From Nitrospirota bacterium (GTDB taxonomy: Bacteria > Nitrospirota > Thermodesulfovibrionia > Thermodesulfovibrionales > Dissulfurispiraceae), in assembly GCA_040754455.1 (NCBI GenBank), contig JBFMCP010000012.1:27268-69214 (forward strand): a stretch of DNA of 41,947 nucleotides. The letters are read 5' to 3'. The position numbers and the translations under genes are program-made. Positions 32,884 through 33,993 of the stretch are shown here, one piece after another; the first letter of the stretch is position 1, and every line of letters begins with the position of its first letter. The notes under the pieces were generated by a model that worked only from the letters and a program-made list of their open reading frames with translations, did not search any database and was not told the DNA's origin.

Positions 32884-33993
32884 ATGAAAAACGTCATTGT
32901 CGGCATGAGCGGAGGCGTGGATTCCTCAATCACTGCCTTGCTTCTCAAGGAACAGGGCTATGAGGTTGAGGGGGTAAGCTTTGTCCTCTATGAGATGAGG
33001 CTGAAAAAAACTTCTTCCCACGCTCCCTCGTGATGCACTCTTGAGGCTCTGGAAGATGCCAAAAAGACTGCGGAGAGTATCGGTATCAGGCATACCATGG
33101 TGAACCTGAGGGACGAGTTTGTCAGCACGGTGATCGAACCGTTCATTCATGCCTATGCAAAAGGCATTACCCCGAATCCCTGCATCCTCTGCAACAAGAA
33201 CATCAAGTTTCCCTATCTTCTGAAGATCGCTCATGAACGGGGCGCCGATTATATTGCCACAGGACACTATGCACGCGTGGAACATTGTAGCCCGGAGGCA
33301 CAGAACCGGAAGGCTTCCGAGCTTCCGCACTTCCGCACTTCCGTGCTCAAAAAAGGAATAGATCTCAAAAAGGACCAGTCCTATGTTCTTTACGTCCTTA
33401 CACCTGAACTGCTGGATCGGCTACTGCTCCCTCTCGGCGAAAAGAGGAAGGAGGAGGTCCGGCAGATGGCACGGGAGAGGAACCTCTCTGCTGCCCGGAG
33501 GCCGGAGAGCCAGGAGATATGCTTCATCGAGGACCGGTATTACTTCAGATTCGTCGAGGAGCTGACCGGAGAGACCAAGGGGCCGATGATCGATATCGAA
33601 ACAGGAAAGACCCTTGGTCAGCATAGGGGAATCCATCTCTATACTCCCGGACAGCGGAAGCGTCTGGGAGTGGCGACAGGAAAGCCTCTCTACGTTGTGA
33701 GAATCGATGCAAAAAGCAATACCGTTTATGTGGGGCCTCGCGAAGCAGCTCTGGCGCGTGAGTTTAGCGTCGATGAGGTTAACTGGCTGATCCCTCCGCC
33801 CACCGGGACGCAGGTTTTCCGTGCTATGGTGAAGATCCGGTCAACGATGAGGGATGAGCCTGCAACGCTCCATGTCCTTGACCACAACAGGGTAAAGGTC
33901 GTCTATGATGAGCCGCAGTGGGCACCGGCGCCGGGCCAGGCCGCTGTATTTTATGAGGGAGACGTGGTTATCGGCGGCGGTGTGATACAGTGA
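32884..33993 (+). CDS. mnmA: tRNA 2-thiouridine(34) synthase MnmA, predicted selenoprotein (TGA 33031-33033 at codon 50)
   Basis: The two ORF-track fragments are in one frame: [10 protein letters not shown]...[15 protein letters not shown]...NPCILCN..IKF...ATGHYA...KDQSYVL...ESQEICF...APGQAAVFY. 369 aa with readthrough. An in-frame upstream ATG exists at 32779. Confidence 0.9.
33045..33060 (+). promoter_or_regulatory. Putative bacterial SECIS element in mnmA
   Basis: GGC-TCT-[GGA]-AGA-T-GCC starts 11 nt after the TGA; G-initial loop and bulged U; lower stem TCTT/AAGA possible. Confidence 0.7.
33314..33345 (+). repeat. Four octamer repeats (CTTCCGnn) inside mnmA
   Basis: CTTCCGAG CTTCCGCA CTTCCGCA CTTCCGTG, with complementary CGGAG/CGGAAG units just upstream. 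Confidence 0.8.

Follow-up and report, generated by a model that had tools for sequence, protein, structure and literature searches.

We analysed a window of 41,947 nucleotides (nt) from a Nitrospirota bacterium (contig JBFMCP010000012.1, positions 27,268 to 69,214; the window means this whole stretch, and all coordinates below are counted from its first letter) and found that its mnmA gene probably encodes a selenoprotein. MnmA is a near-universal enzyme of translation and decoding fidelity, and it thiolates the 2-position of the wobble uridine U34 in the tRNAs for Glu, Gln and Lys. The gene is interrupted by a single in-frame TGA, and the proposed reading of this codon as selenocysteine (Sec) would place a Sec-Cys dyad where related enzymes carry two adjacent cysteines. 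The original prediction, made from the DNA letters, had claimed this replacement of the vicinal Cys-Cys, and it is supported here by several observations: the TGA pairs exactly with a conserved Cys, a stop recurs at the same codon in eight further clusters of related proteins, and the codon is followed by a hairpin that conforms to the general model of bacterial Sec insertion elements.

The mnmA frame runs from the ATG at 32884 to a TGA at 33991-33993 and comprises 369 sense codons, with one internal stop and no frameshift. Both the open reading frames (ORFs) and the family models agree with the earlier description of an otherwise intact 369-codon mnmA with a TGA in the sequence context given there. 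When the UGA is read as Cys, the product matches the NCBIfam equivalog NF001138 over the entire model (1-345 of 345) with 399.4 bits against a cutoff of 284, and TIGR00420 with 350.3 bits against a cutoff of 236.95. The three Pfam families PF03054, PF20259 and PF20258, corresponding to the HUP domain, the PRC-barrel and the C-terminal beta-barrel, are all above cutoff. The product is predicted from these family models to act as a tRNA 2-thiouridine(34) synthase; NCBIfam returned no selenoprotein-specific MnmA model for it. The PP-loop aspartate (D13) is kept in 149 of 150 MnmA representatives, which are the cluster representatives from an exhaustive HMMER search, and the AlphaFold model of the product has a mean predicted local distance difference test (pLDDT) score of 82.5.

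Two classes of MnmA are distinguished by motif in the available text of Shigi et al. (2020, PMC7025502), the D-type with C-DxxC-C and the C-type with CC-CxxC-C. In the C-type enzyme of Thermus, the CxxC and the last Cys hold a [4Fe-4S] cluster; variants of the C-type without CC exist, and the pair is not strictly required for the class (PMC7025502). The original prediction had recognised the cysteines of a [4Fe-4S]-type MnmA in the motifs NPCILCN and QEIC, and C100, C103 and C213 are all present. Because the CxxC and C213 match the class motifs of Shigi et al., as far as these are described in PMC7025502, we assign the window MnmA to the C-type, in the form UC-CxxC-C. Of the CC motif, which the class has some 50 residues into the protein, the window MnmA has the second Cys, and the UGA takes the first position, so the motif has its CC equivalent only if the UGA is Sec. 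The coordinates of these and other features are collected in Table 1.

Table 1 Coordinates of the mnmA gene, of the second UGA-containing gene and of their features in the window
Feature	Position	Strand	Description and basis
mnmA coding sequence	32884..33993	+	369 residues with U at codon 50, terminal stop TGA (33991-33993); NF001138, TIGR00420, Pfam
PP-loop SGGVDS, residues 9-14, ATP pyrophosphatase signature	32908..32925	+	Identical in 27/27 aligned sequences
In-frame UGA, proposed Sec50, first Cys of the CC motif	33031..33033	+	Cys in 26/26 close homologs and in 114/150 representatives
Cys51 (TGC), second dyad residue	33034..33036	+	Sequence and alignment
SECIS-like hairpin	33035..33071	+	Lower stem 33035-33042/33064-33071; upper stem 33045-33050/33054-33060 with bulged U at 33057; GGA triloop 33051-33053
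CxxC (C100, C103; NPCILCN), two of the three [4Fe-4S] ligands of C-type MnmA	33181..33192	+	Cys at both positions in 150/150 representatives; ligand role as described in PMC7025502
C213 in QEIC, third cluster ligand	33520..33522	+	Cys in 149/150 representatives; role as described in PMC7025502
Dual CXXC motif small selenoprotein gene	15768..15935 (start may be ATG 15756)	+	In-frame UGA 15813-15815; NF041197.2
SECIS-like hairpin of the small selenoprotein gene	15828..15851	+	GGC triloop 15839-15841, 23 nt past the UGA

The UGA falls on a conserved Cys column. In the alignment of close full-length homologs (63-69% identical to the window protein, picked down the list of the best 120 database matches), columns 50-51 are Cys-Cys in every one of the 26 sequences. 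Among the 150 representatives, Cys occupies column 50 in 114, column 51 in 113 and both columns in 106, while the segment is missing in 14. The single N-terminal Cys of the D-type structures (2DER and others) also aligns with column 50, the UGA column. The statement in the original prediction that many MnmA proteins have CCS...DA at this position thus stood for the 26 close homologs and for the 106 representatives with CC, but did not extend to arbitrary mnmA loci, as only nine of 117 carry CC; the pair is not general to MnmA. These loci come from a pattern scan of genome DNA (TGATGY, a gap, then a TPNP-C/DxxCN-KF motif) that returned at least 120 matches, mostly out of frame, and gives no measure of prevalence; the 117 are the 120 matches listed minus three without a recognisable PP-loop.

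Over the 21 codons that separate the UGA from M72, the next ATG downstream, the window protein conserves every one of the six family-invariant columns (C51, D58, A59, A63, G67 and H70). Upstream, the loop ahead of the codon has three more residues than that of the close Cys forms, and its last residues are AP[ST], where those forms have a Gly before the CC. The UGA therefore lies on the Cys of the homologs with conservation on both sides, the pattern by which membership among bacterial selenoproteins was judged. This exact pairing of codon 33031-33033 with a conserved Cys supports a Sec-Cys dyad that replaces the vicinal Cys-Cys of [4Fe-4S]-type MnmA.

The original prediction had also pointed to a hairpin, GGCTCT-GGA-AGATGCC, beginning 11 nt past the TGA. 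It begins at 33045. When the 45 nt counted from the TGA are folded, the minimum-energy structure (-11.9 kcal/mol) has this hairpin as its upper part and consists of a lower stem, an internal loop, an upper stem of six pairs with a bulged U, and a GGA triloop located 17 nt past the UGA. The model of the bacterial Sec insertion sequence (bSECIS; PMC13188914) specifies an apical loop of 3-9 nt with a G in its first two positions, an upper stem of 4-16 base pairs, a distance of 16-37 nt between UGA and loop, and a minimum free energy of at most -7.5 kcal/mol. All four constraints are satisfied by the mnmA hairpin through its GGA loop, its six pairs with one bulge, its distance of 17 nt and its fold energy. 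The genome scan supplied 10 Cys-type mnmA genes with CC; at the equivalent place, none of them passes the general bSECIS model and none has a GGN triloop; because none passes, the hairpin is not a by-product of the protein sequence. When the 14 codons that follow the UGA were recoded synonymously 3000 times with the codon usage of the window, 161 of the recodings passed the general model and 35 had a GGN triloop. A hairpin with a GGN triloop at 16-37 nt follows only five of the 1525 TGA triplets of the window, although this criterion was chosen after both hairpins had been seen and the count is a lead rather than a clean test. Two of the five triplets are in frame, in mnmA and in the gene at 15813, and the other three (26483, 26492 and 36062) lie in stop-filled frames. 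SelB is predicted, from the sequence, to bind the mnmA hairpin.

The gene at 15813, which the original prediction had proposed as a second Sec candidate, proved to belong to a catalogued family. Its in-frame TGA (15813-15815) interrupts an ORF that matches NF041197.2 over positions 1-52 of 53 of the model with 62.2 bits (cutoff 40) when Cys is placed at the TGA. The score drops to 52.6 bits with X and to 52.9 bits with Trp, so that Cys is worth 9.6 bits more than X, and this drop locates the TGA on the Cys/Sec column of the family. The dual CXXC motif small selenoprotein family is listed in Table 1 of PMC13188914. The hairpin downstream of this UGA, which has a GGC triloop, folds with -25.1 kcal/mol over 60 nt (z = -2.25; 4 of 200 shuffled sequences are as stable). 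The gene is flanked on the right by a CxxCxxCC-domain gene (15948-16514, PF03692) and on the left by a Cys-rich minus-strand ORF without a family match (15174-15716).

Because the window holds a member of NF041197 with UGA on the Cys/Sec column and the same kind of triloop, the organism very probably decodes Sec. The Sec machinery, with selC nested in selB, is mentioned for Nitrospirae in the available text of PMC13188914, and the closest named relatives of the window MnmA are from Nitrospirae, Thermodesulfovibrionales and Dissulfurispira. A screen of the window for pairs of ORFs joined by TGA returned 163 raw pairs, mostly noise or adjacent genes; the plus-strand frame 4426-5666 contains eight TGAs and was rejected as a gene. 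Only two in-frame TGAs interrupt recognisable genes of the window, and both of them are on Cys columns and are followed by a hairpin with a GGN triloop.

These observations bear on the alternative that the codon stands for one of the standard amino acids (Trp, Gly or Cys), through reassignment or near-cognate read-through. Reassignment does exist elsewhere, since four Mollicutes-like mnmA loci from the genome scan (L036, L038, L079 and L093) carry TGA inside N-W-D or Y-W-D motifs, which is the expected TGA = Trp code. In the window, the stops of the 35 family-supported genes are TAA in 16, TAG in 11 and TGA in eight, and apart from mnmA none of these genes has an internal stop. Since TGA closes eight of the genes, mnmA among them, at the point where their homologs finish, it serves as an ordinary stop in this organism. 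Together with the position of both gene-interrupting TGAs on Cys columns ahead of GGN-triloop hairpins, and with a score for Trp at the NF041197 codon that is 9.3 bits below that for Cys, this makes decoding as a standard amino acid very improbable.

A stop at this codon is also indicated in relatives. A protein from a different source (P0002, 298 residues) is 99% identical to the window product, with two differences in 298 residues, and is predicted only from M72, as a gene caller would do if the upstream stop were present there too. The exact 49-residue N-terminal ORF of the window was counted on three contigs. When these 49 residues were searched against proteins of 26-86 residues, 1077 matches were obtained, of which the best 120 were listed. 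The subfamily motif LYE[ML]R occurs in nine of these 120 fragments, namely P0272-P0278, P0283 and the one from the window, and all nine stop at the same codon behind [AST]P[ST], with identities to the window of 69-81% (100% for its own fragment). The P[ST] end is absent from the remaining 111, which have scattered ends or junk tails. The segment before the UGA (33010-33030 in the window) has its own signature in this Sec-type group, YE[ML]R[LV][KR] followed by 6-9 variable residues and ending in [AST]P[ST]; the corresponding YEAR-x-K-NTFTG of the Cys forms is shorter by 2-4 residues. This suggests that the pre-UGA loop was remodelled together with the change from Cys to Sec.

As a single assembled sequence, the window could in principle contain an error of sequencing or assembly that turned a true TGC or TGT into TGA. 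Such an error is extremely improbable, as P0002 comes from another source, differs in two residues and is likewise called only from M72, the 49-residue ORF recurs on three contigs, and the stop has the same position in the eight diverged clusters. Moreover, the local sequence departs from the Cys forms in a coordinated way, both before the codon (SSHAPS) and downstream of it, where an L-E builds the stem.

A search with residues 51-369 recovered two C-terminal relatives, P0392 (285 residues, 72% identical) and P0395 (293 residues, 68% identical), both intact and with every catalytic motif. P0395 retains G67 and H70 upstream of the position of M72. The fragments P0274 and P0275 are probably the N-terminal halves that belong to P0392 and P0395, respectively, on shared contigs, as judged from the equal sizes of their longest contigs (31562 and 6665). 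In a FastTree phylogeny of 72 rows, from which P0002 was omitted as a near-duplicate of the window protein, the window MnmA, P0392 and P0395 form one clade (SH-like, that is Shimodaira-Hasegawa-like, support of 98) nested among Cys-type sequences. The end branches of this clade are long (0.23-0.36 changes per site), and the stop has therefore been kept through much divergence. A stop that stays at one codon through so much divergence, while both halves are under constraint, bears the mark of Sec decoding rather than of a decaying gene.

A pseudogene would imply that a recent nonsense mutation from TGY to TGA killed mnmA and left only a 49-residue peptide. One base change is enough to turn a Cys codon into TGA, a second mnmA may exist elsewhere in the genome, and the genome scan provides an example of the same codon as TGA in a decaying gene. 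This locus (L025, Candidatus Heritagella caecorum, CAJFQL010000008.1, TGA at 2678-2680 in plus-strand coordinates of the locus) is the only one among the 120 scan matches listed with an in-frame TGA at the dyad codon. We rejected it as a Sec-containing MnmA, because two lesions, a frameshift that follows QDICFI and another stop within the C-terminal domain, mark it as a pseudogene or as part of an error-rich assembly. The window mnmA, unlike L025, has no other lesion. The recurrence of the stop in eight further clusters at 69-81% identity, the intact and motif-complete downstream ORFs of two relatives, the clade's end branches of 0.23-0.36, a divergence without decay that is unexpected for a dead gene, and the conserved pre-stop motif and 2-4 residue insertion of the subfamily all argue against decay, as does the near-universal role of MnmA as a translation factor. 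We consider a pseudogene quite improbable. Across the 117 loci, in-frame stops between the PP-loop and TPNP are found in six: L025, the four loci with TGA in N-W-D, and L010, whose stop is inside the NK-KF motif; none of the six is a further Sec candidate.

Gene callers predict exactly two ORFs at this locus, and some low-level termination at Sec codons is normal. MnmA could accordingly be truly split, with termination at the UGA and a separate C-terminal protein starting from ATG 33097 (M72), perhaps acting with the 49-residue PP-loop peptide. This arrangement has little probability. The 21 codons from the UGA to M72 retain six of six family-invariant residues, in P0395, too, G67 and H70 persist ahead of the position of M72, and no Shine-Dalgarno-like purine run is found in the 30 bases before ATG 33097. 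We know of no precedent for a PP-loop on a separate peptide of 49 residues.

A different kind of fragment was seen in the same N-terminal search. Six short fragments of Clostridia-type C-type MnmA (P0290, P0329, P0334, P0349, P0371 and P0383) end directly after the first Cys of CC (...G[GSA]C), and 17 fragments among the best 120 of the 1077 matches read through CC. The six could be C-U selenoprotein forms and thus a second independent use of Sec in the dyad; they could also be contig ends, several of the contigs being only 500-1000 nt long. If Clostridia-type MnmA does have a parallel C-U form, as it may, Sec was recruited to the dyad more than once.

Several observations weigh against a selenoprotein. 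The general bSECIS model is also satisfied at 177 of the 1525 TGA triplets of the window (11.6%), and because of this background rate passing the model is, taken alone, weak evidence. The stability of the mnmA hairpin is unremarkable (z = -1.63; 13 of 200 shuffled sequences are as stable), 276 of the 3000 synonymous recodings are as stable as the native hairpin, and when 60 nt or more are folded another minimum-energy structure replaces it. No SECIS family of Rfam matches, as the whole window gives no hits at gathering thresholds; a match to HOTAIR_3 (E = 6.3, in a search of 32800-33300 with E up to 10) was discarded as a chance match, and the Rfam result is uninformative about a bacterial SECIS at this site. 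In the relatives, the stop is placed from the ends of predicted proteins; a TGA there, a Cys after it and a conserved or covarying hairpin are presumed. C-terminal partners were found for only two of the eight other clusters among the best 120 matches, and their pairing is derived from equal contig sizes. The sole other genome with TGA at the dyad codon among the scan matches listed is the pseudogene L025. Finally, selA, selB, selC, selD and selU are all absent from the 41.9-kb window (47 ORFs searched with NCBIfam and 22 with Pfam), a point that would also fit a pseudogene; the window has no tRNA genes. With these points included, we still consider that the window mnmA probably encodes a selenoprotein.

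In the proposed scheme, the ribosome would read the UGA at 33031-33033 as Sec, directed by the hairpin 11 nt downstream, to which SelB would bind together with Sec-tRNA(Sec). The product would be a full-length C-type MnmA of 369 residues. The steps known for the family would be retained, that is, the PP-loop would adenylate C2 of U34 and sulfur would be delivered from the [4Fe-4S] cluster held by C100, C103 and C213. Adenylation of U34 by the PP-loop and supply of sulfur from a [4Fe-4S] cluster with three Cys ligands, through its free iron, are described in the available text of PMC7025502 and PMC8053098. Sec50 and Cys51 would pair a selenol with a vicinal thiol to form a redox centre on the face that binds the nucleotide. 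In the AlphaFold model, residue 50 caps the helix 53-66, directly after the strand 27-34 and a low-confidence loop (38-49), and topological reasoning suggests that it lies on the nucleotide-binding face of the Rossmann-like PP-loop domain.

The equivalent dyad in Thermus thermophilus MnmA is Cys55/Cys56, which is highly conserved and yet dispensable in vitro, and whose role is left open in the available text of PMC7025502. In vitro, the C55A and C55A:C56A variants match the activity of the wild type and C56A exceeds it 1.7-fold, and a direct transfer of persulfide from cysteine desulfurases is suggested there (PMC7025502). We propose that Sec50 could accept sulfane sulfur from a cysteine desulfurase or a carrier as a Se-S-H adduct, and that attack by Cys51 would then produce a selenenylsulfide and free hydrosulfide to the cluster's free iron. 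In vitro, free sulfide or thiol reductants would bypass this relay step. A relay would account for both the conservation of the dyad and its dispensability in vitro, because the supplied sulfide or reductant bypasses it. This role is tentative, and we regard it as possible rather than probable: the in vitro dispensability of CC counts against it in so far as it fits a regulatory or protective role equally well, and the main alternative is a purely protective or regulatory switch based on a vicinal selenenylsulfide. It is unlikely, in our estimate, that the U-C dyad makes MnmA a selenium-handling enzyme, either by transferring both sulfur and selenium to U34 and forming 2-selenouridine without a separate SelU or through a switch on wobble thiolation that senses selenium and redox state. 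If the switch form were true, the decoding of Glu, Gln and Lys codons would follow the supply of selenium. The original prediction had proposed a relay of sulfur or selenium, redox control and a tie between wobble modification and selenium supply, and all of these functions are speculative.

An mnmE gene (30211-31617, plus strand), which follows yidC (28627-30165), is located 1.3 kb upstream of mnmA; MnmE is the partner of MnmA and acts on the wobble uridine too, at its 5-position. Between mnmE and mnmA is a peptidyl-prolyl isomerase gene on the minus strand. Directly 3' of mnmA (34045-35030) are a MOSC-domain gene and a MoaB/Mog-like gene, both of sulfur and molybdenum cofactor chemistry. Farther away, the plus-strand gene 7342-10089 encodes a multihaem protein of 915 residues that matches TIGR04315 (tetrathionate reductase family octahaem cytochrome) with 268.5 bits, below the cutoff of 375. 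The TIGR04315 family is among the GenBank-annotated selenoproteins in the 2026 catalogue, and the copy in the window has no in-frame TGA.

To our knowledge, Sec takes the place of Cys almost exclusively where a residue is chemically active, and for this reason the first position of the dyad would be expected to do chemistry in vivo. A natural Sec at the Cys that is shared by both MnmA types would mark a poorly understood Cys pair as chemically active, and for this pair U, C and S variants at position 50 offer a direct experimental handle. If the proposal is true, a selenoprotein would be placed one step upstream of 2-selenouridine synthesis, and a tRNA-modifying PP-loop enzyme would join a catalogue dominated by thiol oxidoreductases (PMC13188914). 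There is also a consequence for annotation, as such genes are now split into two ORFs in databases.

The suspicion in the original prediction that a Sec-containing MnmA would be new survives a check of the literature. Neither MnmA, nor a thiouridylase, nor any PP-loop enzyme is among the 119 selenoprotein families and subfamilies in Table 1 of PMC13188914 (2026). The words MnmA, thiouridylase and thiouridine are absent from the main text of that paper, and MnmA and thiouridylase are absent from a 2022 review (PMC9312934). No Sec-containing MnmA was found in the literature as judged by titles and abstracts, a check that did not cover the supplementary candidate lists of selenoproteome surveys. 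The window mnmA looks like a previously uncatalogued case, with standard Sec decoding in a host enzyme class that has no prior record of it.

Compared with known systems, the window MnmA is closest to the C-type enzyme of T. thermophilus, with which it shares the PP-loop, the three domains, the CxxC + C ligands and, if the UGA is Sec, a vicinal dyad at the position of Cys55/Cys56 (as described in PMC7025502). It differs from this and other C-type enzymes in that the first dyad residue is encoded by UGA and an RNA hairpin is embedded in the codons that follow. The D-type enzymes of known structure (2DER, 2DET and 2DEU of E. coli; 9HLN, 9HLV and 2HMA) share the fold and the reaction (E = 7e-69 to 5e-64), but they have DxxC in place of CxxC, lack the second Cys of the dyad and have no Sec. 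Within the same organism, the NF041197 gene (15768-15935) likewise carries an in-frame UGA at a Cys/Sec column, followed 16-37 nt downstream by a GGN triloop, whereas its product is an unrelated small zinc-ribbon-like protein and its stem is longer and more stable, with 10 pairs compared with six in mnmA. Among catalogued selenoproteins, those with a CU dyad (SaoL, HgcA, SaoC, MbdU and KCU-star; PMC13188914 Table 1) similarly carry Sec beside Cys and have Cys-only homologs. Truncated database entries that end at the dyad are also common to CU-dyad selenoproteins, according to the available text of 10.1101/2022.07.06.499078, and to the window mnmA. The window MnmA is distinguished from these proteins by the order of the dyad, U-C instead of C-U, and by its host, a PP-loop tRNA-modifying enzyme.

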